Translations under genes and position numbers: made by a program | DNA from: a virus | Lineage: Duplodnaviria > Heunggongvirae > Uroviricota > Caudoviricetes | Length of the DNA: 12,824 nt | Strand: one strand, 5' to 3' | IMG/VR virus record: IMGVR_UViG_2740892209_000012 | Part shown: positions 1 through 12,824 of the stretch, one piece after another | How positions within the stretch are numbered: position 1 is the first letter of the stretch | How the letters are laid out: every line of letters starts with the position of its first letter | The notes under the pieces: model-generated | Seen by the model: only the letters and a program-made list of their open reading frames with translations | What the model was told of the DNA's origin: nothing | Databases searched by the model: none

Positions 1-170
1 GTTAAGCATCCACAGGCTGGTATCTGCAACCGATTATAACGGATGCTTAACGTAATGCGTGAAGTATGGACATATTTTATCAATTAGTGTTTTTTGCCGT
101 TTCATAATGTTTCAGATTGTTCATTATGTTTTTGATTATCAACGGATTTGCTATTTTCCTTGTTTCAGCT

Positions 171-227
171 TGTTTCACGTTGTAGCGCTTTGTGCAACGA
201 TCGGTGTAGTTAATGGTGTAGTTAATT
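171..227. repeat. attL: left copy of attachment-site direct repeat
   Basis: 192-227 matches 11247-11282 at 35 of 36 positions; similarity extends to 171-183 vs 11226-11238, with a divergent 8-bp patch between. Core contains tandem GGTGTAGTTAAT x2 (203-226). Confidence 0.75.
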
Positions 228-1478
228 GTGATGACCGGAATCAAAATTATGCGCAGAGCACTTAACAAACTGAGTGATACACAGCTAAGGAAAATCAACG
301 GCACACCCGCCCAAAAAACAGCCTTTCTTAATGACGGTGGAAACCTGAGCGTCAGGCATTCAACCAGCGGCCTTTTAACCTGGTATTTCACCTACAGGGC
401 CGGAACGGGAAGGGGAGCACGACCGGAACGGATTAAGCTGGGAAATTATCCTGATCTGAGTCTGAAAGCTGCCAGGGAAAAAGCGGCACAGTGTCGCGCT
501 TGGCTTGCTGAGGGGAAAAATCCACGTCATGAGATGAATTACACCGTACAGAAAGCGTTAAAGCCCGTAACGGTTGGCGATGCGCTTACCTACTGGCTTG
601 AGTCTTACGTAAAGGAAAACCGCGTGGATTATGCCGCCCTGAAAAAGCGCCTTAATAATCACGTAATACAGCACATTGGTGCTATGCCGCTGGATAAATG
701 CGAGCTACGGCACTGGCTGGCCTGTTTTGACCAGGTGGCAAAGCGAACGCCTGTTACTGCCGGATTCTTGCTACAGACGTGCAAACAGGCGCTTAAGTTC
801 TGCCGGAGGCGGCGCTATGCAATCAGCAACGTTCTTGATGATATGAGTGTGGCGGACGTTGGGAAAAAACCGGATATAAGCGAGCGTGTCTTAAGCACCA
901 AAGAACTTGGCGAATTATTGCAGGCACTGGACAAAAAAATATTTTCCCCTTACTACGTCGCACTAATCCGCCTCCTGATTGTTTTCGGATGCCGGACGGT
1001 AGAACTGAGGTTATCGGAGATCAGCGAGTGGGATTTTACCGAAATGCTCTGGACCGTGCCGAAAGAACACAGCAAAACGAAGGTGGCAATATTCCGGCCC
1101 ATACCGGAAGCAATACTGCCGTTCGTCACGCAGCTGGTGGAGCAGAACAGGCACACGGGCTTATTGCTGGGGGAAGTGAAACAGGAAACAAGCGTGTCGC
1201 AGTACGGCAGATTAGCGCACAGGAGGCTAAAACACCCTCACTGGTCACTGCATGACATCCGGCGCACCTTTACAACGATGCTGAACGATTTAGGCGTGGA
1301 TCCTCACGTCGTGGAGCAGCTTACAGGTCATCAGATGCCAGGGATGCAACGAGTCTATAACCATTCCCGTTATCTGGATGCGAAACGTGACGCGCTGGAT
1401 ATGTGGACGGAGCGGTTAGGGATACTGGCGGGAACACATGAAAACGTAACCACATTGCCAATAGCCAGAGAAATATAA
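228..1478 (+). CDS. int: Tyrosine recombinase / integrase, P4-family type
   Basis: 416-codon ORF. N-terminal arm-binding-like pattern (LNDGGNLSVR, WYFTYR, IKLGNYPDLSL..AR) and C-terminal catalytic signature (LHDIRRTF, GH......Y) typical of P4-like integrases. Begins right after the attL core. Start uncertain: GTG 228, ATG 231 or ATG 249. Confidence 0.9.
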   Translation: MMTGIKIMRRALNKLSDTQLRKINGTPAQKTAFLNDGGNLSVRHSTSGLLTWYFTYRAGTGRGARPERIKLGNYPDLSLKAAREKAAQCRAWLAEGKNPRHEMNYTVQKALKPVTVGDALTYWLESYVKENRVDYAALKKRLNNHVIQHIGAMPLDKCELRHWLACFDQVAKRTPVTAGFLLQTCKQALKFCRRRRYAISNVLDDMSVADVGKKPDISERVLSTKELGELLQALDKKIFSPYYVALIRLLIVFGCRTVELRLSEISEWDFTEMLWTVPKEHSKTKVAIFRPIPEAILPFVTQLVEQNRHTGLLLGEVKQETSVSQYGRLAHRRLKHPHWSLHDIRRTFTTMLNDLGVDPHVVEQLTGHQMPGMQRVYNHSRYLDAKRDALDMWTERLGILAGTHENVTTLPIAREI

Positions 1479-1500
1479 TTTTTTTTGCGATTTTTCAGGA

Positions 1501-1560
1501 TGCGGACAACGTGAAACAACGAGACACAACGACGAACAACAAGGAACAAAATGGAACAAC
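1501..1560. repeat. Six tandem 10-bp units each ending ACAAC/ACAAA, exactly helically phased
   Basis: tgcggACAAC gtgaaACAAC gagacACAAC gacgaACAAC aaggaACAAA atggaACAAC, directly after the int stop; a second CA-rich phased array (ACACAA units) at 1761-1810 flanks the AT-rich alpA upstream region. Confidence 0.6.
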
Positions 1561-1843
1561 GGGTTAAAAATCAGCCATCGTAATAACCATTTGATTTTTA
1601 TAGGTGTACTGTTTTTTTATACACTGGCGAATCACTCTTAAAAATATGTAAAAAAGGCGTAAAAGTAAAATTTTATGCCTTTGCATCATAATGAATTAAA
1701 AGAGTTTTTATTCTCATTCCCCCTGCTTCTGTAAAACGACCGCCGCCAGTGTTTGCCATTCCACAAACACCCTGACACAATCCGACACAACCCAACCCAA
1801 TAATCCACCCAATGACTCTTTAAGAAACAACAAAGGGGGAATT

Positions 1844-2032
1844 GTGTTAAGCACAGATCGCTTTATACGTGAAAAAGAATGTCAGCAACTTACAGGCCTG
1901 AGCCGCTCATGTCGGTACCGCCTGGAAAAAGCCGGACAATTCCCATCACGGCGTAAGCTGGGCGGTCGTTCCGTTGGCTGGTCTTTATCCGAAGTTTTGG
2001 CATGGAAGGACAGCTGCGAGGCAGTTCACTAA
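1844..2032 (+). CDS. alpA: AlpA/Vis-family HTH regulator (excision and transcription activator type)
   Basis: 62-aa ORF with GTG start preceded by AAGGGGGA Shine-Dalgarno; FIREKECQQLTGLSRSCRYRLEKAGQFPSRRKLGGRSVGWSLSEVLAW matches the AlpA-type small HTH pattern; position immediately downstream of int as in Gram-negative PICIs. Confidence 0.8.
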   Translation: MLSTDRFIREKECQQLTGLSRSCRYRLEKAGQFPSRRKLGGRSVGWSLSEVLAWKDSCEAVH

Positions 2033-2084
2033 TCAGGCTGGCGGCACACAGCCGCCACCCATCCACTAATACAGAGATCTAACC

Positions 2085-3371
2085 ATGAATACTGGATATT
2101 CTCCCGAACAAGGGCGGGGCTTCGTTCGTCCTGAAAAACAGAATCTGCAAAATTTTGCCGAAATTATTCCGGTTATTTCCGGCCTTACTGGCGGGAGTGA
2201 AACCAATATTGTTAACGCCAGAGCGTTGCAGATGTTTGATGATAAAAAGGGAGTAAATTTAACTTACACCCCTGACGGCAATCAGAATATGAGCATTATC
2301 TCTGAGTCAGGTTTCTACAAACTAATAAAAACAAAAAGCGCCCCGTTGCCGGAGCGCCTTTGTGAACAATTAACCTACTGCGCAAAAAATGAATCTGAGC
2401 AGTGGGATTATATCAACCATGTGGAGAAGCGCCACAATTGCCGAATAACGGGCAAAACAAAGGCCACCCGCTACAGTGGCCCCTCGACACAAGCTACACG
2501 TTATCCCCAACGCATGAGCATTGCCAACAATGCCACATTTGCGGCTGGTGGGCAATGCAATCAGTCTGGTTCAGTTCGTTGCCATACCTGCAATGAGCGC
2601 TTTTCCCTGTACTCTTTAAGGAATTGCTCAAGGGCAAAAGCACATGGCGCGAATCTTTCTGATTCATGCTCTATCTTTCTGCGCCGTCTTTTCCGTGCCG
2701 GTGATAATGTTTTGGTCAATTCTTTATCGGTCATTGTGTTGTCCTGCATAGCAATGCGCCGTAGTTACTCACACCACGGCGCTGGTGATGGTTACTCCTG
2801 CTCTTTGGCCTTGCGGCGCTGGCGGCGTTTGATTTCGCCGCGCATGGCTGCGTTTATAAACTGTCCCGTGCTTTCGCCTTCTTCTTTCACGTTCTCCATG
2901 CCTTCAATAATTTCATGGGCAATACGTGCAGTTACAGATTGTGATTTTGCATTCTTTGGACCCGTTGCCATGTTTAACCCCTCATGTTTTTGGTGTAAGA
3001 CAATATACACGAAAAAAAAATATTTTGAAGGGTTGGCGTGTAAGACACCATTGTTTTACATTGTGTCTTACACCTTATTGATGAAAGGCACAGAAACGAC
3101 GAAACCCCGCACTGTAGGAGCAGTAACGGGGCTTCTAACCACCAACGATAGCAACAGTATCGAGGTAGCTATGAGAAATCATACCACACACCCGAAAGGG
3201 CGGGACTCGCACAACCTGAATAAATACATCTGGCGTTTTATCGCCCTGAGCACGGCACAACCGCGCGTGATTACCATTGAGGCCACCAGCGAACAGGAAG
3301 CACGCCAGCAATCTCCGGCTGGCTGCGTGATGGTATTTGCTGCCCGTATTCGTCAGGGGGTAGGCTTATGA
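2085..3371 (+). CDS. Questionable 428-codon open frame; probably not one gene. Only the N-terminal ~85 codons look protein-like (BRO-N/antirepressor-like ISESGFYKLI motif)
   Basis: No stop for 1287 nt, but the central part is Cys/Ser/Arg/Leu-rich junk-like translation, runs antisense to a well-supported small minus-strand gene (2792-2971), and reads through an AT-rich operator/promoter region (2993-3080). The 3' end coincides with the Icd-like ORF starting at 3171. Confidence 0.2.
   Translation: MNTGYSPEQGRGFVRPEKQNLQNFAEIIPVISGLTGGSETNIVNARALQMFDDKKGVNLTYTPDGNQNMSIISESGFYKLIKTKSAPLPERLCEQLTYCAKNESEQWDYINHVEKRHNCRITGKTKATRYSGPSTQATRYPQRMSIANNATFAAGGQCNQSGSVRCHTCNERFSLYSLRNCSRAKAHGANLSDSCSIFLRRLFRAGDNVLVNSLSVIVLSCIAMRRSYSHHGAGDGYSCSLALRRWRRLISPRMAAFINCPVLSPSSFTFSMPSIISWAIRAVTDCDFAFFGPVAMFNPSCFWCKTIYTKKKYFEGLACKTPLFYIVSYTLLMKGTETTKPRTVGAVTGLLTTNDSNSIEVAMRNHTTHPKGRDSHNLNKYIWRFIALSTAQPRVITIEATSEQEARQQSPAGCVMVFAARIRQGVGL
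2324..2357 (-). terminator. Candidate intrinsic terminator for leftward transcription
   Basis: Stem GCGCCCCG (2338-2345) / CGGAGCGC (2350-2357), loop TTGC; on the minus strand it is followed by TTTTTGTTTTTATT (complement of 2324-2337). Confidence 0.35.
2792..2971 (-). CDS. Small basic hypothetical protein (59 aa), candidate autoregulated regulator
   Basis: Minus-strand ATG at 2971 preceded by GAGGGG Shine-Dalgarno (6-nt spacing); protein-like K/E-rich composition (MATGPKNAKSQSVTARIAHEIIEG...KRRQRRKAKEQE); promoter-like -35 TTCAAA / -10 TATATT upstream with a GTGTAAGACA operator-like repeat overlapping the -10/start region. Confidence 0.5.
   Translation of the reverse strand: MATGPKNAKSQSVTARIAHEIIEGMENVKEEGESTGQFINAAMRGEIKRRQRRKAKEQE
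2993..3073. promoter_or_regulatory. Divergent promoter/operator region with three GTGTAAGACA half-sites
   Basis: GTGTAAGACA at 2993-3002; perfect 11-bp inverted repeat GTGTAAGACAC (3038-3048) / GTGTCTTACAC (3063-3073) with a 14-bp spacer; lies between the minus-strand small gene and the plus-strand Icd-like ORF; -35-like TTTACA at 3055-3060 on the plus strand. Confidence 0.55.
3171..3371 (+). CDS. Icd-like small protein (host cell division inhibitor-like family seen in P1/P4-type immunity regions)
   Basis: ATG 3171 preceded by GAGG (5-nt spacing); 66 aa; the YIWRFIALSTAQPRVITIEATSEQEARQQSPAGCVMVFAARIR pattern resembles recalled Icd-like proteins; stop overlaps the next start (ATGA at 3368-3371). 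Confidence 0.45.
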   Translation: MRNHTTHPKGRDSHNLNKYIWRFIALSTAQPRVITIEATSEQEARQQSPAGCVMVFAARIRQGVGL

Positions 3372-3598
3372 GCCAGGAAATCACACTACAACAGGCAGCA
3401 GAACGCGCCCACCAAATCGAAGTTATTTGCGCACTGGCAGAGGATTACCCTAGCATGATGACCGACAGCGAATCAGGGGCAATCATCGGCTTACTTAAAC
3501 GCCTTAGCGGTGAGGTCTGCGTATTCCTGAGCGATGAACAGGAAAGAAGAACGCTTATTTCTAACGAAAAAAAATGCGGAGGGGTACATGTGCAATAA
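3368..3598 (+). CDS. Hypothetical protein (76 aa)
   Basis: ATG 3368 with GGGGG Shine-Dalgarno; ATGA overlap with the upstream ORF; overlaps the next ORF start by 11 nt. Confidence 0.55.
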   Translation: MSQEITLQQAAERAHQIEVICALAEDYPSMMTDSESGAIIGLLKRLSGEVCVFLSDEQERRTLISNEKKCGGVHVQ

Positions 3599-3818
3599 AA
3601 CCACACCGGACGCAGCAGAAGAAGCAATGCAAATACTGATACGTGCGCTCGTTGATGTTACCCACATGGTGGAGATTATGGAGAGAAAATCACAGTCGGA
3701 GCACGACAAAAGAAAACTTAAAACAATAAAAATAATTGCCAAAAACTCGCTGATAAAAGTTACAGACATCCTTAATGAGGACATTAAAAGAATAAGGGAG
3801 AAAATTTGTGATGCATAA
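3588..3818 (+). CDS. Hypothetical small protein (76 aa) in AT-rich segment
   Basis: ATG 3588 preceded by GCGGAGGGG Shine-Dalgarno; the ORF track extends it upstream to 3534 but the Shine-Dalgarno supports 3588; helical K/E/I-rich composition. Confidence 0.5.
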   Translation: MCNKTTPDAAEEAMQILIRALVDVTHMVEIMERKSQSEHDKRKLKTIKIIAKNSLIKVTDILNEDIKRIREKICDA

Positions 3819-4038
3819 AATCCCTTTTGAAGTATTAATCCACTCTGAAAACGCATTAATTAAAGCACGCGAAATGAATGCGTTGTTAATTAAATTAATT
3901 GAAGTGCCGGAAGGTGGCGAAGATCATTCATCATTAATGTTTGCCGCTGTTCAGACATTATTGACACCTGTTATTGATGAACTCAATAAGGCTATGGCAA
4001 TTCACGAGAATAATAAAGCGCCCCACACCGGAGAATAA
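3808..4038 (+). CDS. Hypothetical small protein (about 75 aa) in AT-rich segment
   Basis: GTG 3808 / ATG 3811 preceded by AGGGAG; overlaps the stop of the previous ORF (3816-3818); acidic helical composition. Confidence 0.5.
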   Translation: MMHKIPFEVLIHSENALIKAREMNALLIKLIEVPEGGEDHSSLMFAAVQTLLTPVIDELNKAMAIHENNKAPHTGE

Positions 4039-4043
4039 AAATA

Positions 4044-4343
4044 ATGAAACTTAAATATTCTGGCTTAACTGCCAGTGGCAAAACTCGCACTAAATTCATG
4101 CGCGGTGATATTTACCGCGACCAGTACGGCGGCACGGTAATGATTAAGGGCGTGGAGGAACGGCGCGTAACCTACCGTCGTGAAGGCTACGAATATGATT
4201 GCGTGATGCCTGTTTATCAGTTCGATCGTGATTTTTCTCTGGTGCAGGCCGTACCGCGTAACGTGCCCACCAGCAGGGAGAAAGCACGCGCCAATATTCA
4301 GGAAATAAAAAAGATGCTTAACGTATTCAGGGGTAAGAAATGA
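4044..4343 (+). CDS. Hypothetical basic protein (99 aa), translationally coupled to the primase gene
   Basis: ATG 4044 with GGAGA Shine-Dalgarno; stop TGA 4341-4343 overlaps the primase ATG 4340 (ATGA). Confidence 0.65.
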   Translation: MKLKYSGLTASGKTRTKFMRGDIYRDQYGGTVMIKGVEERRVTYRREGYEYDCVMPVYQFDRDFSLVQAVPRNVPTSREKARANIQEIKKMLNVFRGKK

Positions 4344-6088
4344 AACTGGCACCGAACGTAAAAAAACAACCACGCGGAATAAAACACAAAGACACAGAGG
4401 TAATTATTTTCGCGGGTAGTGATGCGTGGTCACATGCAAAACAGTGGCAGGAGCAGGACGGCCCCGCATCCGGCGATAATGTGCCGCCTGTGTGGCTTGG
4501 GCCAAATCAGCTTGCCGAACTTGATGCGCTGAAAATTGTTCCGGATGGGAAAAAGCGCGTAAGGCTGTACCAGGCCGGAGAACTGGATTTGGTGGAGACC
4601 AAAAAGATTGGTCAGAAGCTGGCGGCGGCAGATATTCAGGACGCAAATTTTTACCCCGAAGGAATGCACGTCCAGAAGTGTGAAAACTGGCGGCGCTATC
4701 TGAATGCTGAGCGTGAAAATATTGCCGCAGGGCTTACCATGCCGGAGCAGAAAAATACGCAACTGGCACAAATGGCAGACAGTGAGCGCGCGCAGCTGCT
4801 TGCCGAGCGCTTTGATGGCGTTTGTGTGCATCCTGAAAGTGAAATCGTTCACGTATGGCGCGGCGGGGTATGGTGTCCGGTCAGCACAATGGAGCTGAGC
4901 CGCGAAATGGTGGCGATCTATTCAGAGCACAGGGCCACTTTCAGCAAGCGCGTAATCAATAACGCCGTGGAAGCGTTAAAAGTTATTGCCGAACCAATGG
5001 GCGAGCCGTCCGGCTATTTGCTGCCGTTCGCCAATGGTGCGCTTGACCTGAAAACGGGGGAATTTTCCCCGCACACGCCGGAGAACTGGATCACCACGCA
5101 CAACGGCATTGAGTACACGCCACCAGCACCAGGGGAGAACATCCGCGATAACGCGCCAAACTTTCATAAATGGCTTAAGCACGCAGCCGGAAAAGACCCG
5201 CGCAAGATGATGCGTATATGTGCCGCGCTGTACATGATTATGGCGAACCGGTACGACTGGCAGATGTTTATTGAGGCCACCGGAGACGGCGGGAGCGGTA
5301 AAAGTACATTCACACACATAGCCAGCCTTCTGGCAGGGAAACAGAACACGGTAAGCGCTGAAATGACATCGCTTGATGATGCTGGTGGACGTGCGCAGGT
5401 TGTCGGGAGTCGTCTTATCGTCCTGGCTGACCAGCCGAAATATACAGGCGAAGGAACGGGCATCAAGAAAATCACGGGCGGTGACCCCGTGGAAATTAAC
5501 CCGAAATACGAAAAGCGTTTCACGGCTGTAATCAGGGCGGTGGTGCTGGCGACCAACAATAACCCGATGATATTCACCGAACGGGCCGGAGGTGTGGCAC
5601 GTCGTCGCGTGATTTTCCGTTTCGACAATATCGTCAGTGAGGCCGAAAAAGACAGGGAGCTACCGGAAAAGATCGCGGCTGAAATCCCTGTCATTATCCG
5701 CCGATTGCTGGCGAACTTTACCGACCCTGAGAAGGCACGGGCTTTACTACTGGAACAGCGTGACGGTGATGAAGCACTGGCAATAAAGCAACAGACGGAT
5801 CCGGTTATTGAGTTTTGCCAGTTCCTGAATTTTCTGGAGGAAGCGCGCGGCCTGATGATGGGGGGCGGTGGCGATTCAGTGAAGTACACGACCAGGAACA
5901 GCCTTTACCGCGTCTATCTGGCGTTTATGGCATACGCAGGCAGGAGCAAACCGCTAAACGTAAATGACTTTGGAAAGGCTATGAAGCCTGCCGCAAAAGT
6001 TTACGGACATGAATATATTACGCGGAAAGTTAAGGGGGTAACGCAGACTAACGCAATAACAACAGACGAGTGCGACGCGTTTTTATAA
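4340..6088 (+). CDS. Primase/replication initiator with D5_N-like and SF3-helicase P-loop domains (P4 alpha C-terminal type; PICI pri-rep-like)
   Basis: 582-aa ORF; FANGALDLKTGEF motif (D5_N-like), Walker A GDGGSGKST, Walker B-like RLIVLADQ; immediately followed by an iteron array. Confidence 0.9.
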   Translation: MKLAPNVKKQPRGIKHKDTEVIIFAGSDAWSHAKQWQEQDGPASGDNVPPVWLGPNQLAELDALKIVPDGKKRVRLYQAGELDLVETKKIGQKLAAADIQDANFYPEGMHVQKCENWRRYLNAERENIAAGLTMPEQKNTQLAQMADSERAQLLAERFDGVCVHPESEIVHVWRGGVWCPVSTMELSREMVAIYSEHRATFSKRVINNAVEALKVIAEPMGEPSGYLLPFANGALDLKTGEFSPHTPENWITTHNGIEYTPPAPGENIRDNAPNFHKWLKHAAGKDPRKMMRICAALYMIMANRYDWQMFIEATGDGGSGKSTFTHIASLLAGKQNTVSAEMTSLDDAGGRAQVVGSRLIVLADQPKYTGEGTGIKKITGGDPVEINPKYEKRFTAVIRAVVLATNNNPMIFTERAGGVARRRVIFRFDNIVSEAEKDRELPEKIAAEIPVIIRRLLANFTDPEKARALLLEQRDGDEALAIKQQTDPVIEFCQFLNFLEEARGLMMGGGGDSVKYTTRNSLYRVYLAFMAYAGRSKPLNVNDFGKAMKPAAKVYGHEYITRKVKGVTQTNAITTDECDAFL

Positions 6089-6102
6089 TTTTTTGTAATT
6101 GC

Positions 6103-6328
6103 TGTCTACCCTGTCTACCTGAGTAAAGAAAAATACATTTAATTCAGTGCATTAAGTTAGGTAGATAGCCTTTTTTTACTGTCTACCCACTATCTACCCT
6201 CTCTACCTGATTTTACCTGAATCAGACAGGGAGGTAGACACGGGGTAGATAGTGGATAAAAGCACTCTACCCCGCTGAAAGCCGCGCCATTACTGGCATG
6301 AGGGCCACTAAGGTAGATAAGGTAGACA
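6103..6328. repeat. Iteron-type replication origin
   Basis: About 11 copies of TGTCTACC / TATCTACC / CTCTACC and the inverse GGTAGACA / GGTAGATA in both orientations (e.g. 6103-6110, 6112-6119, 6160-6168, 6180-6188, 6191-6199, 6233-6240, 6244-6252, 6312-6319, 6321-6328) around an AT-rich spacer, directly downstream of the replication protein gene. Confidence 0.7.
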
Positions 6329-6376
6329 AGGGGAGGCACAACTCAAAACTTTTTAAACGAGGGGGTAAAAATAAAT

Positions 6377-6538
6377 ATGCACACTTCAGGGAAATTTAAT
6401 AAATCACTCAAAAAACGCAGAGACAGAACAGAACCGAAATATCGCGCGTTAGACATGACAGAGCACGCTTTAAAGGTGGCAATCAGAACGATAGACCGCC
6501 ACGCGGGGGAGGATACGCGAAAGCACATCCCGAACTGA
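6377..6538 (+). CDS. Possible small basic protein (53 aa), below the ORF-track size cutoff
   Basis: ATG 6377 preceded by GAGGGGG; a second 34-codon ORF (6550-6654) ends in an ATGA overlap with the ssb start. Both are speculative. Confidence 0.3.
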   Translation: MHTSGKFNKSLKKRRDRTEPKYRALDMTEHALKVAIRTIDRHAGEDTRKHIPN

Positions 6539-6650
6539 TAAGCGCATTCATGACCACGACGGCGGCAAATTTTGCCACGCTGACAGAGCGGGAGATTGCC
6601 GAAGCGGAACAGGTAACAACCATCAACGTTAAAACCGGAGAGGTGGAATC

Positions 6651-7073
6651 ATGACAGCACAGATAGCAGCTTACGGGCGGCTGGTGGACGACCCGCAGGT
6701 AAAACAGACCAGCAAGGGCACACCGATGACGCTGGCGCGTATGGCGGTCCCCCTTCCGTGCAGCCAGGCAGATGACGGAACGGCGACGATGTGGTTATCC
6801 GTCCTGGCATTTGGCAGACAGGCCGAAGCACTGGAAAGGCACCGCAAGGGTGAACTCCTGAGCGTGGCGGGTAACATGCAGATCAGCCAGTCGACTGGGC
6901 AGAACGGAGAAACGCGGCAGGGCTGGCAGGTTATCGCAGACAGTGTAATCAGTGCGCGAACGGCGCGACTGGGCGGCAAAAAAGGTCAACAGGGCCAGGC
7001 TACTGACGCGCTGAACAGGGCAAAACAACAGGCGGGGAATGATGATCCGTACGGGGATAACATACCGTTTTAA
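6651..7073 (+). CDS. Single-stranded DNA-binding protein-like (short SSB with acidic C-terminal tail)
   Basis: 140 aa; OB-fold-like N-terminus (GRLVDDPQVKQTSKG...) and C-terminal DDPYGDNIPF resembling the SSB acidic tail ending in IPF; followed by a strong terminator. Confidence 0.75.
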   Translation: MTAQIAAYGRLVDDPQVKQTSKGTPMTLARMAVPLPCSQADDGTATMWLSVLAFGRQAEALERHRKGELLSVAGNMQISQSTGQNGETRQGWQVIADSVISARTARLGGKKGQQGQATDALNRAKQQAGNDDPYGDNIPF

Positions 7074-7080
7074 GCGACGA

Positions 7081-7102
7081 GAGACAGAAGCCGGAGCAAT
7101 CC
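7081..7102 (+). terminator. Rho-independent terminator after ssb
   Basis: GCCGGA-GCAA-TCCGGC hairpin followed by TTTTTT. Confidence 0.7.
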
Positions 7103-7160
7103 GGCTTTTTTACGGGTCCTCCTGGCGGGGTGGGCCTGAACACGGGGCGGGAAGCGCGGA
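7103..7160 (+). other. Degenerate cos-like sequence (pseudo-cosQ/cosN), paralogous to the 9530-9606 region
   Basis: ACGGGTCCTCCTGG followed by GGGCGGGAAGCG (8 of 12 matches to cosN) and CGG-AAAAAAGCG; the preceding hairpin is near-identical to the one at 9530-9545. Confidence 0.35.
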
Positions 7161-7286
7161 AAAAAGCGCATTTTTGTGATTTTATCGTCATCATCATCAT
7201 GAGCGTAATTTATTGTTTTTAATTGTTTTGATGCAAAAAAGATGATGGTTGTGGTTAATTTTCGTTCGACATCTTTGCAGGCAGAT

Positions 7287-7327
7287 AAAAAAGCCCGATA
7301 AGGTCAGAGGTGGCTTATCGGGCTTTT
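7287..7327. terminator. Bidirectional-looking stem-loop (10-bp stem) flanked by A-run and T-run
   Basis: GCCCGATAAG (7293-7302) / CTTATCGGGC (7314-7323), with AAAAAA upstream and TTTT downstream. Confidence 0.45.
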
Positions 7328-7422
7328 GCATATGAGGCTTTTTGGTGCACTGACACACATGAGCGGGATCATCATTTCATAATTTGCAACACAACTCAAT
7401 ATCATTGCACAAAACGCAATCC

Positions 7423-7453
7423 TGATTATAATCAGAGCTGGATGAACATCCAG
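7423..7453. promoter_or_regulatory. Two adjacent palindromes upstream of the capsid operon (candidate operator/activator sites)
   Basis: Perfect palindrome TGATTATAATCA (7423-7434) and CTGGATG-AA-CATCCAG (7438-7453), about 35 bp upstream of the ATG at 7489. Confidence 0.35.
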
Positions 7454-7488
7454 TTATGATTTTTTAAGTCGAAGAGGAATTTCTTACT

Positions 7489-7695
7489 ATGGCTGAAGAG
7501 AAAAAAGGCGGTGTTTCGGTGTACATAAGCCCCGAAATCGTGGAGGTGCTCAAGCAGCGCCACAAAAAAAACTATGAGGCTGGCGTGGCGGCTGGACTGG
7601 ATCCGCTGATGACGCCGGAGCCGTCGATAGGTTCACTTGTACGCTCTTATTTACTTGCGGCGCTTGGGATGCATAAAAATTATGGGGGTGAATAA
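7489..7695 (+). CDS. Small hypothetical protein (68 aa), possibly ribbon-helix-helix-like, first gene of the capsid operon
   Basis: ATG 7489 with AGAGGA upstream; GVSVYISPEIVEVLKQ resembles an RHH beta-strand/helix start; stop overlaps the MCP start (TAATG). Confidence 0.55.
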   Translation: MAEEKKGGVSVYISPEIVEVLKQRHKKNYEAGVAAGLDPLMTPEPSIGSLVRSYLLAALGMHKNYGGE

Positions 7696-8750
7696 TGGCA
7701 GGCAAAGCAACGGCACTTAACACTAACCAGCTTTTCATGTACCTGAATCGCGGGGATATTGCGGATTTTAAATTCAGCCCTCTGTTTACTACGCTGTTTT
7801 TCCCGAACGTGGCGACATTCAGCACGCAAAACATCATGCTGGATACCCTGGACATTGAAGAAGTCACCATGTCGGCGTTTTGTTCGCCTATGGTGGGTAG
7901 CCAGGTTCAGCGCGATAAAGGGTACGAAACCAGCACGATTAAACCTGGCTACATGAAGCCAAAGCACGAAATCGATCCAACGAAAACCATCATGCGCATG
8001 GCTGGAGAAGATCCGGCACAGCTTAACGACCCTACCTATCGCCGTATGCGCCTGATTACTGGCAATATGCGCCGCCAGATAAACGCCATAAAAGCGCGCG
8101 TGGAATGGCTGGCGGTAAATGCGGTAACGACCGGAAAAAACATCATTGAGGGCGAAGGCATAGAGCGCTATGAAATCGACTGGAAGATACCGGAAAAAAA
8201 CATCATAGAGCAGGCCGACGGGAAAAAATGGTCAGAGCAGGACAAAGAAACCCACGATCCAATCTATGATATCGAACTATACGCCGATCAGGCTGGTTGC
8301 CCCGCAAACGTCATGATTATGGGCGCTGAGGTATGGCGAACGTTACGCAGCTTTAAAAAATTCCGTGAGCTGTACGATCTTTCCCGTGGTTCAGAATCCG
8401 CCGCCGAACTGGCCTGTAAAAACCTGGGCGAAGTGGTGAGCTTTAAAGGCTATCTTGGTGATCTGGCCCTTATCGTCTATTCCGGCAAATACACTGACAG
8501 CGATGGTACCGAAAAATATTTCCTTGAGCCTGATTTGCTGGTCCTGGGCAACACCAACAATAAAGGGCTGGTGGCCTATGGTGCGATAATGGATCAGGAA
8601 GCGGTAAGAACGGGCGCAACACAAAACATGTTTTACCCGAAAAACTGGATTGAGGACGGCGATCCGGCGATTGAGTACGTGCAGACGCACAGCGCACCGC
8701 AGCCGGTTCCGGCAGATATTCGCAAATTTGTTACCGTCAAAATTGGTTAA
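7695..8750 (+). CDS. Major capsid protein, lambda gpE-like
   Basis: 351 aa; multiple blocks align with recalled lambda E (FKFSPLF..LFF, PGYMKPKHE, EDPAQLNDPTYRRMR, WSEQDK..HDP, RSFK, LVLGNT..GL..YG, YPKNW...GDPA, SAP). Confidence 0.9.
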   Translation: MAGKATALNTNQLFMYLNRGDIADFKFSPLFTTLFFPNVATFSTQNIMLDTLDIEEVTMSAFCSPMVGSQVQRDKGYETSTIKPGYMKPKHEIDPTKTIMRMAGEDPAQLNDPTYRRMRLITGNMRRQINAIKARVEWLAVNAVTTGKNIIEGEGIERYEIDWKIPEKNIIEQADGKKWSEQDKETHDPIYDIELYADQAGCPANVMIMGAEVWRTLRSFKKFRELYDLSRGSESAAELACKNLGEVVSFKGYLGDLALIVYSGKYTDSDGTEKYFLEPDLLVLGNTNNKGLVAYGAIMDQEAVRTGATQNMFYPKNWIEDGDPAIEYVQTHSAPQPVPADIRKFVTVKIG

Positions 8751-8761
8751 CGGGGGATTCT

Positions 8762-9097
8762 ATGGACACTCCATACATTGAGTTATTTGCAGGCAGTCAG
8801 CAGGTCGCCACGACGCTGGTACATTTTGCCGCTGATGCTGGCGTTATTCAGGAATTTACCCCGCTGATGCTGGCGGACAATGGCGAGTTTAAGCCGTGGG
8901 ATGGTAAGGAATCTGGCAAGGCTGTTTATCTGACCTCGTACCCTGTGGACACGTCAAAGCAGAAATCAGCACAGTGTTACAAGACGGGGATATTCAATAT
9001 TGCCGCCGTTAACTGGCCTGAGAGCGTCGACACCGATGCGAAAAAATGCGCCGCCTTTGCGGGTTCCGGCGTATCCGTTCAGCCGCTGGCCCGATAA
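8762..9097 (+). CDS. Head decoration protein, lambda gpD-like
   Basis: 111 aa; C-terminal YKTGIFNIAAVNWPESVDTDAKKCAAFAGSGVSVQ resembles lambda D ([34 protein letters not shown]); GGGGGA Shine-Dalgarno; lies downstream of the E-like gene (order reversed relative to lambda). Confidence 0.8.
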   Translation: MDTPYIELFAGSQQVATTLVHFAADAGVIQEFTPLMLADNGEFKPWDGKESGKAVYLTSYPVDTSKQKSAQCYKTGIFNIAAVNWPESVDTDAKKCAAFAGSGVSVQPLAR

Positions 9098-9109
9098 GCA
9101 GGGGGAACG

Positions 9110-9523
9110 ATGGCAACGAATGAAAGCATCATGACGCTACCGCTGGCGAGTAAATTTAAAGCCGAAGCGCGGGCAATGGCTGACAGAGGTTTATCAACCT
9201 ATGAGGCCGTATATCAACTAAACAAACTGGAAGAGCAGGACAAGCCGCGCGCTGATGCGATTATGGCGCTTCATGAGCATAAAGACTATCAGCCGCTGTT
9301 GCGTGCAATGGCAAACGTGCCTTGTATCGATGTTGGTACGGCTAAAAGCATCCTTAGCATGACCATAGAGCAGGAGCGCCCAAAGGTTGCACCAGAGCTT
9401 ACCGCAGCCTTTGAAAACTTTATGGACATGCACAGCCCGCAAGCCGTATCAGCTGGCATGGCATACGATGGCAGAAACCAGGGCGATGACGGCGACATCG
9501 ATCGCATACTGAAAACCATCTGA
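9110..9523 (+). CDS. Hypothetical protein (137 aa), last gene of the capsid operon
   Basis: ATG 9110 with AGGGGGAA Shine-Dalgarno; protein-like composition; followed by a strong terminator. No family recognised. Confidence 0.7.
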   Translation: MATNESIMTLPLASKFKAEARAMADRGLSTYEAVYQLNKLEEQDKPRADAIMALHEHKDYQPLLRAMANVPCIDVGTAKSILSMTIEQERPKVAPELTAAFENFMDMHSPQAVSAGMAYDGRNQGDDGDIDRILKTI

Positions 9524-9529
9524 GACAAG

Positions 9530-9552
9530 GCCGGAGAAATCCGGCTTTTTTT
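9530..9552 (+). terminator. Rho-independent terminator immediately upstream of cos
   Basis: GCCGGA-GAAA-TCCGGC hairpin followed by TTTTTTT. Confidence 0.7.
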
Positions 9553-9640
9553 ACGGGTCCTTTCCGGCATATGGACCCGTTACGGGGCGGCGACCTCGCG
9601 GTTTTTCGCTATTTATGAGCCTTTTCAGGGGGGTGGTGGT
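9553..9640 (+). other. Lambda-type cohesive end site (cosQ-cosN-proximal cosB), forward orientation
   Basis: ACGGGTCCTTTCCGG (cosQ-like, matches recalled lambda right end), GTTACG then GGGCGGCGACCT (9585-9596, identical to the lambda 12-nt cohesive end), then CGCGGTTTTTCGCTATTTATGA (near-identical to the lambda left end start); located about 135 bp upstream of the Nu1-like gene. Confidence 0.8.
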
Positions 9641-9729
9641 GGTTTTGTTGTTTGCTCTATCTTTATGAATGAAAAGGGAAAGATGCAAACAATACACCAA
9701 CCTGAAGCAGTAATTAAGTTGGTGTATTA

Positions 9730-10272
9730 ATGAAATCGCACCTGATGAACAAAAAAAACATGGCGAAAAGCTGCCGTGTAAGTGCGACAGCGTTCGACAA
9801 GTGGGGAGTGACTCCCGTTGAACGTAAAGGCCGTGAGGCGTTTTACGATGTTGCCAGCGTGATAGACAATAGGGTTAACAATGCAATTAGCCAGCTTACA
9901 AACGACAAAGGCGATATTGATGATGATGAACTCTTACGAGTCAGGATCAGATTACTGACAGCACAGGCGGAGGCGCAGGAACTTAAAAACGAGCGCGATC
10001 GCGGTGACGTGATTGATACTGAGTTTTGCCTGTACGCGCTTTCAAAGCTGGCGAGTCAGATTTCATCAATCATGGACAGCCTCCCGCTTACTATGCAAAG
10101 GAGCTTCCCACAGATTACCCCCGCCATGCTGGATAGGCTTAAAAGGGAAGTGGTTAAAGCCTGTAATGCCAGTGCCAGAGTTGCCGACAACCTCCCACAG
10201 ATACTGGCTGATTACTTGAAAGAAACAACCGGAAACGTACCGGAAAAGTTGCTACAGAAGAAAGGCGAGTAA
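9730..10272 (+). CDS. Terminase small subunit, lambda Nu1-like
   Basis: 180 aa; LTAQAEAQELKNERDRGDVIDTEFCLYALSKLASQISSIMDSLPLTMQRSFPQ aligns with recalled lambda Nu1 (LTRAQADAQELKNARDSAEVVETAFCTFVLSRIAGEIASILDGLPLSVQRRFPE); the N-terminal NKK... region matches the Nu1 N-terminus; start may be ATG 9730 or ATG 9745. Confidence 0.85.
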   Translation: MKSHLMNKKNMAKSCRVSATAFDKWGVTPVERKGREAFYDVASVIDNRVNNAISQLTNDKGDIDDDELLRVRIRLLTAQAEAQELKNERDRGDVIDTEFCLYALSKLASQISSIMDSLPLTMQRSFPQITPAMLDRLKREVVKACNASARVADNLPQILADYLKETTGNVPEKLLQKKGE

Positions 10273-10274
10273 CA

Positions 10275-10500
10275 GACGCGCAATTATTGAACAAAACTGA
10301 GAAACGACATGAAAGCGTCATAAATCGCCATTTTAGATGATTACCGTGTCGTTTCTTTTTATTGTGTATCTATTTAAAAACAAATAGTTATGTTCGAGAA
10401 GTACCGACATGCTTTTTCCAGAAAAATTTTCATAAACAGATAAAAACCGCGAGGTCGCCGCCCCGTAACGGGCCATAATTCCAGGAAGGACCCGACGACA
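10275..10500 (-). other. Second lambda-type cos site in inverted orientation with extended lambda-like cosB
   Basis: The reverse complement reads cosQ-like CGGGTCCTTCCTGG, then GTTACG-GGGCGGCGACCT-CGCGGTTTTT (cosN on plus strand at 10452-10463), then TTTATGAAAATTTTT, CATAACTATTTGTTTTTAAATAGATA, AAAAAGAAACGACACGG and GTCGTTTCTCAGTTTTG, mirroring recalled lambda cosB blocks (R3/R2/R1 region). It shares a 36-bp inverted repeat with cos1 (9571-9606 vs 10442-10477, 1 mismatch). Confidence 0.7.
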
Positions 10501-10527
10501 CCAGACTATCAGAACGATGGGGGCACA

Positions 10528-10809
10528 ATGACAGAAGCCGAAATACTGCGATTAATCCGCCGCGTTGCCGGAATCAGCCAGCAGGCCGACGAACAGACCA
10601 CGCAGCCGGACAGCGTGACCGCCGAAAATTATGTTCGTGTGGTTGCTGAGGTGATTCGCCGTAATGGTATCCAGCTTAATGATGTGGATATGCGCAACAT
10701 ACGGATCCGCGTTCTTGAAATGCTGGCCTACAATCGCCGCGTGGCACTGTATCGGGAAACGGAGAAAATTACGTACCACTGGAAGAAGCCGGAGCGGTTG
10801 CGGCGGTAA
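10528..10809 (+). CDS. Hypothetical protein (93 aa)
   Basis: ATG 10528 with GGGGG Shine-Dalgarno; protein-like composition; starts 28 bp beyond the cos2 cosQ-like end. No family recognised. Confidence 0.6.
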   Translation: MTEAEILRLIRRVAGISQQADEQTTQPDSVTAENYVRVVAEVIRRNGIQLNDVDMRNIRIRVLEMLAYNRRVALYRETEKITYHWKKPERLRR

Positions 10810-10810
10810 C

Positions 10811-10977
10811 TGGTTGATATTTTCGAAATTCGCCAGCGGCGAACATCGGGGAAACCAGCCTAACCCGTTGATATTTTCGGGAACCTCAAATTGAAGAGGT
10901 CGGAAACATAACCCGTCATATTCTGGATGCTGATAATTACCACGCAGCCCATTAAGGCCTAACCCGTTGATTCTTCC
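10811..10977. repeat. Four direct repeats of a TAACCCGTTGATATTTTCGG-like unit at roughly 50-bp spacing (candidate integrase arm-type sites)
   Basis: Copies at 10811-10825 (partial), 10859-10880, 10907-10926 and 10957-10977, in the noncoding arm adjacent to attR. Confidence 0.45.
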
Positions 10978-11225
10978 ACAATCCCCCATTGGGGGAGGCT
11001 GGGCGGCCTGCTGTGGGCTTTTCCACCATTGGTGGAAAGGCGCACATCTGGATCATCATTACGGTGATCAAGGGTATGTAAAACCCACCAGCCTGATTGA
11101 CATTTAACCGGAAAAAAGCCAGGTAGCCCCGTTATGGGGATCCCCATATCGACATTAACGCCCCTCATGAATTGGCGCGCTTCCCCCTGGAAAGATGACC
11201 CGCCTGTATATTTCTTGTGTCTATT

Positions 11226-11282
11226 TGTTCCACGTTGTTTCATACAGTGCAACGATCGGTGTAGTTAATGGTGTAGTCAATT
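11226..11282. repeat. attR: right copy of attachment-site direct repeat
   Basis: 11247-11282 matches 192-227 (35 of 36); the upstream block 11226-11238 matches 171-183. Confidence 0.75.
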
Positions 11283-11363
11283 TGCGATTTTTAGCACTTT
11301 TTGCAGTGCAAATCATTTAATTAAATCAATGGCTTGCCTTGATGTAGTGATAAAAGGACATAT

Positions 11364-12824
11364 TTATTCATCTTTCGGCGCAGAATGCTGGCGACCAAAA
11401 ATCACCTCCATCCGCGCACCGCCCAGCATGCTCTCTCCGGCGACGATTTTACCCTCATATTGCTCGGTGATTTCGCGGGCTACCGCCAGCCCCACACCTT
11501 GCCCAGGGCGTAAAGTATCAACCCGTTGACCACGGTCGAAAATGACCTCTCGCTTGCTTAATGGAATACCGGGGCCATCATCCTCGACCACAATATAGAG
11601 ATGCTCGTCGGTTTGCCTTGCAGAAATTTCGACAAACTCGAGGCAATATTTACAGGCGTTATCCAGCACGTTGCCCATCACTTCGACAAAATCGTTCTGC
11701 TCACCAACAAAGCTGATTTCTGGCGAGATATCGAGAGAGATATTGACCCCTTTGCGTTGATACACTTTGTTCAGCGCCGAGGTGAGATTGTCCAACAGTG
11801 GCGCGACCGGATGCAGCTCGCGGCTAAGCAATGTCCCGCCGCGCATACTGGCACGATGCAGGTAGTAGCCAATTTGCTGTGAAATGCGGCTGATTTGCTC
11901 CAGCATTACCGGCTCAGCATCACTGACGCTCATCTTCTCACTACGCAGAGAACGCAGCGTACTTTGCAGCACCGCCAGTGGCGTTTTCAGACTATGGGTC
12001 AGGTCGGTGAGCGTTGTACGATATTTGTCGTAACGTTCGCGTTCACTTTTTAACAGTCGGTTCAGGTTTCGTACCAGACTGGTCAGTTCTCGCGTTGTGG
12101 CTGGATTGAGCAATTCACGGTTATGTTCTTCCAGTTCGCGGACTTCTTTTGCCAGGGCTTCGATGGGGCGTAAACTCCACCAGGCGGCGACCCACAGCAG
12201 CGGGATCACTAACAGCAGATTGGCTGAGAGCACATAGATAAACCAGCTCCAGACCATATAGGAACTTTTTAGCTCCACCGGAATGGTATCCACCACCACA
12301 ATGGTTAACTTTGGCATCCGCGATGTTGCCGGGTAGACGTTTACCGCCACCGAGTGGGTCATCTCCGCGTCGTCATCATCTTCCCGCACTTCCTGCAACT
12401 GTTGCTGTATCGAATGATCTCCACTCAGCAAGAGGCTGGTATCGTTAACATCCGCTTCAATTTCATGAAAACCATTCGATTTCAGCCAGTCAGGCTGGAT
12501 CATCTTCATCAGCCAGGGCACGTCACGTTGCGCCCATAAAAGCTGCCCGTTCTCATCATAAATTAGTGTCATCGTGGGGCTTTGCTTGTCGATATTTTCG
12601 GGTAACTCGACATGCAACTTATTGTTTTCCCACTTCGCAAGGGTATAGAACAGATTGCTCTCGCCACGTAACAGCCGAAACGTGGTTTTATCGAAACTGA
12701 CGCTATAACCGATCAGCGCAACCATTCCGTAGGCAAGCGAAAGCACCAATACTACTGCTGCCGTTGCTAACAGAAAACGTACCCGCAGCGAGAGCGGGAA
12801 AAAAAGATGCAGTAATTTTTTCAT
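11364..12824 (-). CDS. phoQ: Sensor histidine kinase PhoQ (PhoP/PhoQ two-component system), complete
   Basis: 486-aa product matching recalled E. coli PhoQ essentially throughout: N-terminal transmembrane segment, periplasmic acidic patch [11 protein letters not shown], second transmembrane segment, H-box [15 protein letters not shown]-binding boxes DDGPGIP and [12 protein letters not shown]; start codon at the window edge (12822-12824). Confidence 0.97.

Follow-up and report, generated by a model that had tools for sequence, protein, structure and literature searches.

The stretch of DNA analysed here (the window, 12,824 nt; IMG/VR virus record IMGVR_UViG_2740892209_000012) carries an integrated phage satellite between roxA (ycfD) and phoQ of E. 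coli. From left to right it encodes a tyrosine integrase, AlpA, a P4-type primase next to an iteron-bearing origin, homologues of the lambda head proteins E and D, a small terminase subunit (TerS) of the Nu1 type and a last conserved open reading frame (ORF) of 93 amino acids (Table 1). A long direct repeat flanks this gene set. We found that the island occupies positions 78-11365 (11,288 bp) and that its insertion point is the phoQ stop codon; a first-pass annotation, going by the long repeat, had put it about 80 bp further on. The island is a phage-inducible chromosomal island (PICI) of the EcCICFT073 family, a satellite family that is already known. Its long repeat is most likely a pair of docking sites for the integrase, lying about 75-125 bases inside the true ends.

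The repeat itself was recovered where it had been described. Positions 171-227 and 11226-11282 are identical at 48 of 57 positions, and a near-perfect core of 36 nt (192-227 and 11247-11282) agrees at 35 of 36, with an exact run of 31 nt. The similarity reaches further leftward, to 76 nt in all (152-227 and 11207-11282; 61/76 identical). Such a long repeat is not due to chance, because the longest exact direct repeat across 30 shuffles of the window was 16 nt or less. As the first-pass annotation had it, phoQ is intact, and its stop codon (TTA on the + strand, 11364-11366) lies 81 nt past the right repeat copy. The target is not a tRNA gene: a scan of the window gave no tRNA or tmRNA gene, and no Rfam family matched it either. 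The integrase start had been placed directly against the left repeat core, which is true of the mechanically called ORF, beginning with GTG at 228; the annotated start in the relatives is the ATG at 249.

The ends of the island were located by comparison with 5426 complete E. coli genomes. The window is E. coli DNA, its flanks being matched by all of these genomes, and roxA (ycfD) ends directly left of position 1 (L001, L002). Positions 1-151 were matched in full by only about 600 genomes, those with an occupied left junction. In the other genomes the left-flank match halts at 77 and continues directly into phoQ, and window 1-77 is 100% identical to these empty-site genomes. K-12 W3110 has a roxA-phoQ gap of only 75 bp, in which nothing resembling the long repeat was found. 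Chromosomal sequence stops near position 77 and starts again near 11356, and the repeat copies are therefore internal to the element. They do flank the gene set, as had been noted, and both lie inside the element instead of marking its boundary.

In a three-way alignment (a slash marks the junction), the empty site reads ...GTGAAGTATGG(G/A)CATATTTATTCATCTTTCGG..., the left junction ...GTGAAGTATGGACATATTT/TATCAATTAG... and the right junction ...GTGATAAAAGGACATATTT/ATTCATCT... The block common to attL, attR and attB is the 10-bp GGACATATTT, and the final two bases of its right copy are the first two of the phoQ stop codon read on the + strand. When 1-77 was joined to 11366-11615, the resulting 327 nt were found contiguous and identical (327/327) in 4829 of the 5426 genomes. 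The scar with a single repeat (41-227 joined to 11283-11480) was found in none of the 5426. An empty-site allele thus exists, as the first-pass annotation had required of a mobile island, and excision at the outer cores recreates it exactly; the same comparison, run in silico, overturns the assignment of the long repeat to attL and attR. A 10-bp exact repeat alone would not be significant, with about 78 pairs expected by chance in 12.8 kb (N squared/2, divided by 4^10), and the status of GGACATATTT as the att core therefore rests on the empty-site comparison.

The left boundary had earlier been misplaced by about 95 bp and the right one by about 83 bp. For annotation, 78-11365 are the correct island coordinates; roxA and phoQ come to lie 11.3 kb apart, the insertion touches the phoQ stop codon, and all sequence 3' of that stop is replaced. 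As a point of method, an att site need not coincide with the longest direct repeat that flanks an integrase-borne island. Excision is predicted to yield an attP reading ...GTGATAAAAGGACATATTTTATCAATTAG... and an attB reading ...GAAGTATGGACATATTTATTCATC..., and a crossover inside GTGCAACGATCGGTGTAGTTAATGG would be contrary to exchange at the outer cores. In the retained part of the roxA-phoQ spacer (window 1-51), GTTAAGCATCC ... GGATGCTTAAC form an inverted repeat of 11 nt around a 29-nt loop. Once the island has inserted, roxA keeps this inverted repeat beside it; phoQ loses it and is followed by island DNA.

The DNA at the island ends, including the long repeat, travels with the integrase gene. 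Segment 78-260 was found in 714 genomes, and in 34 of 40 sampled rows the match adjoined an annotated integrase gene; in the remaining six it lay under or beside a short hypothetical ORF. Related islands occur at other loci, namely abgR-smrA (L004), inside tqsA (L005), in an ISEc45 transposase gene (L006, L007) and cspD-clpS (L082). Alignment of the left ends showed unrelated sequence up to the junction and homology from exactly ...ATTTTAT(C/A)AATTAG (position ~74 on), and at the right ends the homology continues up to the local core. The two stretches between repeat and core, 78-151 and 11283-11355, accompany the sister islands to tqsA, abgR-smrA, cspD-clpS and the ISEc45 gene, and by these alignments they are element DNA. 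When the ISEc45 copy was excised in silico at its outer junctions, an intact ISEc45 gene was restored (323/323), as found in 707 genomes.

A contiguous attP was found in the metagenomic contig L036. This contig of 11,098 nt has an exact terminal overlap of 119 nt, is circular (10,979 bp) or concatemeric, and encodes an integrase 92% identical to that of the window; its attP runs through repeat, P arm, core ATAACAGCA, P' arm, repeat and int. The head of L083, from the cspD-clpS lineage, has a similar attP-like arrangement. Positions 1-112 of L083 form an attP-type junction (P arm, core, P' arm), and 10475-10586 form an ordinary attR followed by chromosome, with a single T/C difference just past the core. 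L083 may represent two copies inserted in tandem, or circular and integrated forms may have been combined in its assembly. The survey of the arms was based on the complete E. coli genomes and on IMG/VR loci; most IMG/VR proviruses begin exactly at int, without attL, and about 18 loci had upstream sequence. A scan of genome contigs with the integrase gave one locus only, in Shigella flexneri.

The near-perfect part of each repeat copy consists of a doubled 12-nt unit, GGTGTAGTTAAT. At two mismatches or fewer the unit has six matches in the window against 0.78 expected, and none of 200 shuffles reached six; four of the six are the arm units themselves, at 0 or 1 mismatch. The P-arm units start at -98 and -86 from the core start and the P'-arm units at +126 and +138 from the core end. 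These distances are kept across five att specificities, with unit starts at -95 to -98 and -83 to -86 on the P side and at +126 to +129 and +138 to +141 on the P' side. Measured from the core centre, the proximal edges of the doubled units lie 79.5 bp upstream and 130.5 bp downstream. The integrase has an N-terminal arm-binding domain (PF13356, residues 8-95; Table 1). In the reconstructed attP the core is enclosed by a perfect 8-nt inverted repeat, TGATAAAA-GGACATA-TTTTATCA (8/8, with a 7-nt spacer), and no comparable inverted repeat was found in 2000 random 90-nt pieces of the window. The homologous repeat agrees at 7/8 positions in L004 and at 5-7/8 in the other lineages (tqsA, cspD). The features of a heterobivalent attP are thus present: an arm-binding domain, units at conserved distances on both arms and inverted core-type sites. 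Matches to the consensus of integration host factor (IHF) number six in the window against 0.62 expected, and one of them lies between the P-arm units and the core.

Unit sequence differs among the relatives. Of the four units in the tqsA lineage three are GGTGTAGTCACT; the remaining one lies in the P arm and reads GGTGTAGTTATT in L005 and GGTGTAGTCATT in L036. Across integrase residues 36-38 and 42, all lineages with TTAAT units read VRHSTSGLL, including L082/L083, which are only 77-78% identical overall, and the lineage with TCACT units reads VKYLTSGKL. The AlpA alleles do not follow the units: E14/K15/K59 occurs with TCACT (L005) and with TTAAT (O157:H7, L092).

Other repeated motifs lie near the arms. 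Between the last ORF and the P arm (window 10807-10972), three minus-strand IHF-consensus matches sit inside GTTGATATTTTCG-type repeats, and a similar triple repeat was seen in the ATCC 25922 island (L093 13021-13200). By eye, motifs like TGTTTCA or TTGTnnCA recur about 10 bp apart at window 100-197, in the P' arm, and at 11215-11242, and they occur within the distal part of both repeat copies; they could be extra weak protein sites or reflect DNA curvature. TTGTTTCA, considered as a second repeated motif, was not enriched over the whole window (19 against 15.8 expected). Promoter and terminator scans of both island ends gave nothing above the shuffled background, and no int promoter was placed.

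We consider it probable (about 0.85) that the window holds an 11,288-bp PICI of the EcCICFT073 family at ycfD(roxA)-phoQ whose repeat copies are attP arms with integrase arm-type units. The repeat copies would then belong to the P and P' arms of attP. The N-terminal domain of the integrase would bind the four GGTGTAGTTAAT-type units, and its catalytic and core-binding domains would act on TGATAAAA and TTTTATCA around the overlap GGACATA. IHF probably bends the P arm at 11324-11336. Integrase bound at the left units, just upstream of the int ATG, could also autoregulate int, a speculative step for which the promoter scan stayed at background. The life cycle is expected to be that of EcCICFT073, in which a lambdoid helper switches on alpA and excision, replication from the iteron origin, packaging from cos and re-integration at attB follow. 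The Nu1-type TerS presumably redirects the large terminase of the helper to the island cos1.

Some points weigh against attP arms read by the integrase. The arm units could be bound by AlpA or another protein instead. Their variation coincides with the changes at integrase residues 36-38/42, and by comparison of the lineages this appears to be essentially one evolutionary change. The 7-bp overlap GGACATA is deduced from symmetry only, and the symmetry is weaker in the tqsA and cspD lineages. A predicted attP-specific 22-mer, ATAAAAGGACATATTTTATCAA, had no match in IMG/VR, and its two matches in JGI metagenomes showed no other similarity to the window and are due to chance; the public metagenome and virome contigs searched contained no excised attP junction of exactly this island type. 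If the units are attP-arm elements all the same, they might be bound by AlpA, as a winged-helix protein like Xis or Vis, or might act mainly as promoter or operator of int. The AlpA family includes the P4 excisionase Vis, and AlpA was named as an alternative binder of a doubled motif in other PICIs (PMC10111431); 22 nt separate the left units from the int ATG downstream, and attL and the int promoter overlap in KplE1 (PMC2951348). However, one AlpA allele occurs with different units (TCACT in L005, TTAAT in L092), the integrase arm residues 36-38/42 change together with the units, and the AlpA of EcCICFT073 does not control int expression. Four co-oriented half-sites spread over both arms also suit an integrase tetramer, and we regard binding by AlpA, or a mainly regulatory role, as unlikely.

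Far less probable are two readings in which the long repeat is itself an att site. The first-pass annotation saw the 57-bp repeats as attL and attR of an island spanning 171-11282, inserted at an intergenic site about 80 bp downstream of phoQ. Indeed, no direct repeat in the window is longer or better, and these two copies flank the gene set; CGGTGTAGTTAATGGTGTAGTTAATT is listed as the att site core of EcCIDI14 (Fillol-Salom 2018, PMC6092414 Table S1). The genome comparison speaks otherwise, with the single-repeat empty site in 0 of 5426 genomes against 4829 with the outer-core site at 100% identity, nothing repeat-like in the 75-bp gap of K-12, and exact restoration of the ISEc45 gene when EcCIDI14 is excised at its outer junctions. 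This model was rejected on the missing repeat scar, the outer-core empty site and the ISEc45 restoration, and we give it next to no credence. Nesting would also give what is seen here, one repeat pair (the 76-nt inner repeat) enclosed by another (the 10-bp outer core): 78-151 and 11283-11355 would be remnants of an older element, into which a second element inserted using the long repeat as att. Yet the supposed remnants always occur with the integrase, which they accompany to four other loci without a change in spacing; in the circular contig L036 they run on into the remainder of the element; and the outer remnant occurs alone in no genome. On these three grounds the nested model was rejected as well, and it too is highly improbable.

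With the repeat copies taken as attP arms bound by the integrase, a wider proposal can be made, which we offer tentatively and rate at slightly below even odds. Doubled units at about -80/+131 may be a general arm code of PICI integrases, read by residues 36-38/42, with the target set almost entirely by the 7-bp overlap, enclosed by core-type sites that are conserved. If true, this would make clear how phoQ, tqsA and abgR-smrA come to be targeted by integrases 87-91% identical, and cspD-clpS by one 77-78% identical, and it would give a simple account of a satellite integrase family that moves between chromosomal targets. Integrases of this kind would be retargetable by editing seven attP bases. 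Several att cores in the founding table of Gram-negative PICIs (EcCIDI14, yejM-luxR group) would then be arm motifs, the true targets being the ISEc45 secondary site for EcCIDI14 and the tRNA-Pro 3' end for the yejM-luxR group. The confusion of arm repeat and att site met in the window seems to have entered the published att-core table for these sister islands. The island as such is an unremarkable representative of a family already characterised in detail, and our modest addition is an integrase clade with a doubled-unit arm architecture like that of the helper-embedded PICIs.

Table 1. Features of the window, with position, strand and supporting observation.
Feature	Position	Strand	Observation
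Chromosomal spacer, left insertion flank, upstream of roxA (ycfD)	1..67	.	Belongs to the 75 bp between roxA and phoQ in empty-site genomes
attL core GGACATATTT	68..77	+	Common to attL/attR/attB; identical to the published EcCICFT073 core
Predicted overlap GGACATA	68..74	+	C-O-C' inverted repeat
Candidate core-type integrase site C' (TTTTATCA)	75..82	+	Element-side half of the inverted repeat; TTTTAT(C/A)A in sister elements
Putative P' arm of attP, element DNA	78..227	+	Homologous in elements at four other loci; contains the left repeat copy
Left repeat copy	152..227	+	Doubled unit GGTGTAGTTAAT GGTGTAGTTAAT at 203-226, 22 nt before the int ATG
Tyrosine integrase, 409 aa	249..1478	+	Arm-DNA-bind_3 9.4e-19; Phage_integrase 5.4e-17; one residue from the EcCICFT073 integrase
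AlpA	1844..2032	+	Pfam Phage_AlpA 3e-18; identical to the CFT073 protein
428-aa ORF with Icd-like C-terminus	2085..3371	+	phrog_6196 8.7e-55, residues 339-426; gene status of the whole ORF uncertain
Small conserved PICI ORFs	3368..4343	+	Last one a DUF4222 protein, 4044-4343; Pfam, PHROG
P4-type primase/helicase (Pri-Rep)	4340..6088	+	Pfam D5_N, DUF5906, Pox_D5
Replication origin, TRTCTACC iteron arrays in both orientations	6096..6333	.	Directly 3' of pri-rep; layout as in E. coli PICI origins (PMC6092414)
Single-strand DNA-binding protein (SSB)	6651..7073	+	Pfam SSB 1.1e-13
Head-related block	7489..9523	+	Small ORF, E-like, D-like, 137-aa protein (9110-9523); phrog_1999
Lambda E-like major capsid homologue	7695-8750	+	Phage_cap_E 5.9e-52
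Lambda D-like decoration homologue	8762-9097	+	HDPD 2.5e-17
cos1-like site	9553..9620	+	Lambda cosN 12-mer GGGCGGCGACCT at 9585-9596; similar to cos.1 of CFT073 as published
Nu1-type small terminase, 180 aa	9730..10272	+	Phage_Nu1 2.3e-23; phrog_57 3.1e-53
Second exact cosN 12-mer, inverted (cos2-like)	10452..10463	-	Exact match
Last conserved island ORF, 93 aa	10528..10809	+	phrog_1561 3.9e-54; present in all related islands examined
Right repeat copy	11207..11282	+	Doubled unit GGTGTAGTTAAT GGTGTAGTCAAT at 11258-11281, putative P arm
IHF-consensus match AATCAATGGCTTG, putative site	11324..11336	+	Between P-arm units and core; position also matches in L005, L036
Candidate core-type integrase site C (TGATAAAA)	11348..11355	+	attP inverted repeat
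attR core GGACATATTT	11356..11365	+	Common block; published core; empty-site restoration
phoQ, intact, 486 aa	11364..12824	-	Coding sequence unaltered; only the sequence 3' of the stop replaced

EcCICFT073 is the prototype Gram-negative PICI (Fillol-Salom et al. 2018 ISME J, PMC6092414; 2019 Mol Cell, PMC6739421). It was published as AE014075 1377749-1389210, 11.4 kb long, with the att core GGACATATTT at the site ycfD-phoQ (PMC6092414 Table S1), and in L002 this interval begins with the opening base of the left core and closes with the final base of the right core. Its spontaneous excision and circularisation were detected by PCR, and its integration needs int and attP (PMC6092414). The same study showed a functional pri-rep-ori replicon and an AlpA that is an activator, is induced by the helpers lambda and phi80 and did not control int expression (PMC6092414). 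RppA (c1503, 144 aa) and two cos sites were identified later (PMC6739421). With lambda and phi80 as helpers, EcCICFT073 has been shown to undergo phage-dependent induction and packaging, to transfer at high frequency and to cause interference.

The window island shares with EcCICFT073 the ycfD/roxA-phoQ site and the core, an integrase one residue apart and an identical AlpA. The gene order is also the same (int, alpA, Icd-like, DUF4222, primase, iteron origin, SSB, capsid E/D, cos, packaging gene, 93-aa ORF), with c1499/c1500 as counterparts of the head-related block, and 88% of the window aligns at 95% identity. The differences are a length of 11,462 bp in EcCICFT073 against 11,288 bp in the window, an early region that is partly only 93% identical, and the PerC gene of CFT073, which the window island does not have. 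A further difference concerns packaging: the rppA position (144 aa) holds the 180-aa Nu1-type TerS in the window, and no similarity was detected between this TerS and the 144-aa protein of CFT073. The exact mosaic of the window was found in none of the complete E. coli genomes; the best match covers 95% of it at 96% identity.

The Nu1-type TerS gene is flanked by two exact lambda cosN 12-mers in opposite orientations. Like Nu1 in lambda, which lies directly 3' of cos, it is located directly 3' of cos1. The module is a common alternative cassette, being present also in the O157:H7 phoQ-site island, clone D i14 and ATCC 25922; no paper describing the role of this island TerS cassette was found.

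The gene content agrees with the earlier view of a phage satellite and not a prophage remnant, with int, alpA, a P4-type primase, origin iterons, capsid E/D homologues, cos and a Nu1-type TerS within 11.3 kb. As in other Gram-negative PICIs, int stands at the left followed by alpA and rightward genes, pri-rep is joined to an iteron origin, and the element has a dedicated att site and a length of 11,288 bp, within the 8-15 kb or so usual for the group; all island ORFs with family matches are on the + strand. Pfam, PHROG and PADLOC scans gave no lysis or tail genes, the capsid E/D homologues and TerS being the only structural or packaging matches. Portal, protease, connector, HNH and large terminase (TerL) gave no Pfam or PHROG match in the window, which sets it apart from the capsid-forming PICIs. 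It differs from the P4-like satellites in that no Sid, Psu or Delta family was found in the Pfam and PHROG scans and in that cos and TerS are of the lambda type. A PADLOC scan of the ORFs without assignment gave no defence match.

The 428-aa ORF is intact in both the window and CFT073 (L002 4585-5871) despite 133 nucleotide differences. Its codon differences comprise 17 synonymous and 64 non-synonymous changes, and the first third is nearly identical; this pattern does not look like simple purifying selection on its frame. RefSeq annotates here only the Icd-like C-terminus and small genes on the opposite strand.

The doubled units of the window resemble a motif described in the helper-embedded PICIs. 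The attP of those elements, as reconstructed by the Williams laboratory, has the doubled motif tgTGTATTGCantgTGTATTGCa in two co-oriented copies, 81+/-2 bp upstream and 132+/-2 bp downstream of the centre; the authors proposed that an integrase tetramer binds it with its arm domains, or that AlpA does, and reported the motif to be absent from other PICIs (PMC10111431). Like these PICIs (11capE group), the window has co-oriented doubled units on each side, and its values of 79.5 and 130.5 bp compare with theirs approximately, the paper's measuring convention not being stated. The sequences differ, with TGTATTGC there against TGTAGTTAAT in the window and only TGTA shared with GGTGTAGTTAAT, as do the integrase clade and the targets, which are prophage late genes there and the phoQ 3' end here.

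Lambda Int and attP share with the window an arm-binding N-domain and, as far as the window sites are predicted from sequence, arm sites on both sides, inverted core-type sites, a 7-bp overlap and an IHF-consensus site between arm and core. They differ in the number, sequence and spacing of the arm sites, and no Xis gene lies beside the window int. In KplE1, attL overlaps the region upstream of intS, an arrangement tied to integrase autoregulation (PMC2951348), and the window attL likewise overlaps the region just upstream of int. Satellite P4 has a distantly related Int, AlpA/Vis and primase and a satellite lifestyle in common with the window island. It differs in its other att site, in its P2 helper, where that of the window island would be lambdoid (cos/Nu1 type), and in its Sid, Psu, Delta and plasmid-maintenance genes, of which the Pfam and PHROG scans found none in the window.

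The sister islands EcCIDI14, the O157:H7 phoQ-site island and EcCIATCC25922 carry the same module of capsid E/D, Nu1-type TerS and 93-aa ORF, and share with the window the doubled arm units and their spacing. In clone D i14 and O157 the replicon is another one, with a RepA helicase. Att specificity differs too, being ISEc45/abgR-smrA for EcCIDI14 and tRNA-Pro for ATCC 25922. The att core of EcCIDI14 was published as CGGTGTAGTTAATGGTGTAGTTAATT (Fillol-Salom 2018, PMC6092414 Table S1), and this sequence is the doubled arm unit. The loci of EcCIDI14 are L007 2408-2573 and 13164-13270 (clone D i14) and L006 13985-14150 and 24695-24850. The element interrupts the ISEc45 transposase gene about 130 bp left and about 75 bp right of the doubled units, and excision at ...CGCTGTGA/GTTGATG... 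restores the intact ISEc45 gene over 323/323 positions. Its integrase is identical to that of the abgR-smrA island, and ISEc45 looks by sequence like a secondary site, with only GTGA in common with the primary core.

For the PICIs at yejM-luxR the published att core is TTTGTAGTTATACG, doubled. ATCC 25922 (L093) was taken as the representative of this type (loci L093 2043-2275 and 13507-13606). Its left doubled unit starts 131 bp past the tRNA-Pro 3' end, and a damaged 3' fragment of tRNA-Pro (CTCTCGTGGACCAAA) follows about 60 bp after the end of its right doubled unit; the yejM-luxR-type PICI probably has the tRNA-Pro 3' end as its real target. The P' arm of ATCC 25922 has two inverted unit copies too (L093 2276-2310).

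L005 16173-31620 (E. coli 2015C-3121) is a capsid-forming PICI that splits tqsA and carries portal, protease, connectors, HNH, TerS and TerL. It shares the integrase and arm module (integrase 91% identical), and the recombination module is therefore common to classical and capsid-forming PICIs. The island of strain 488 at abgR-smrA has a different head module, with a protease-capsid fusion and a DUF1441 protein. Measured core to core, it (L004 15989-27277) and the window island (68-11356) are both exactly 11,288 bp long, which is probably a coincidence, as other relatives range from 10,478 to 15,635 bp.

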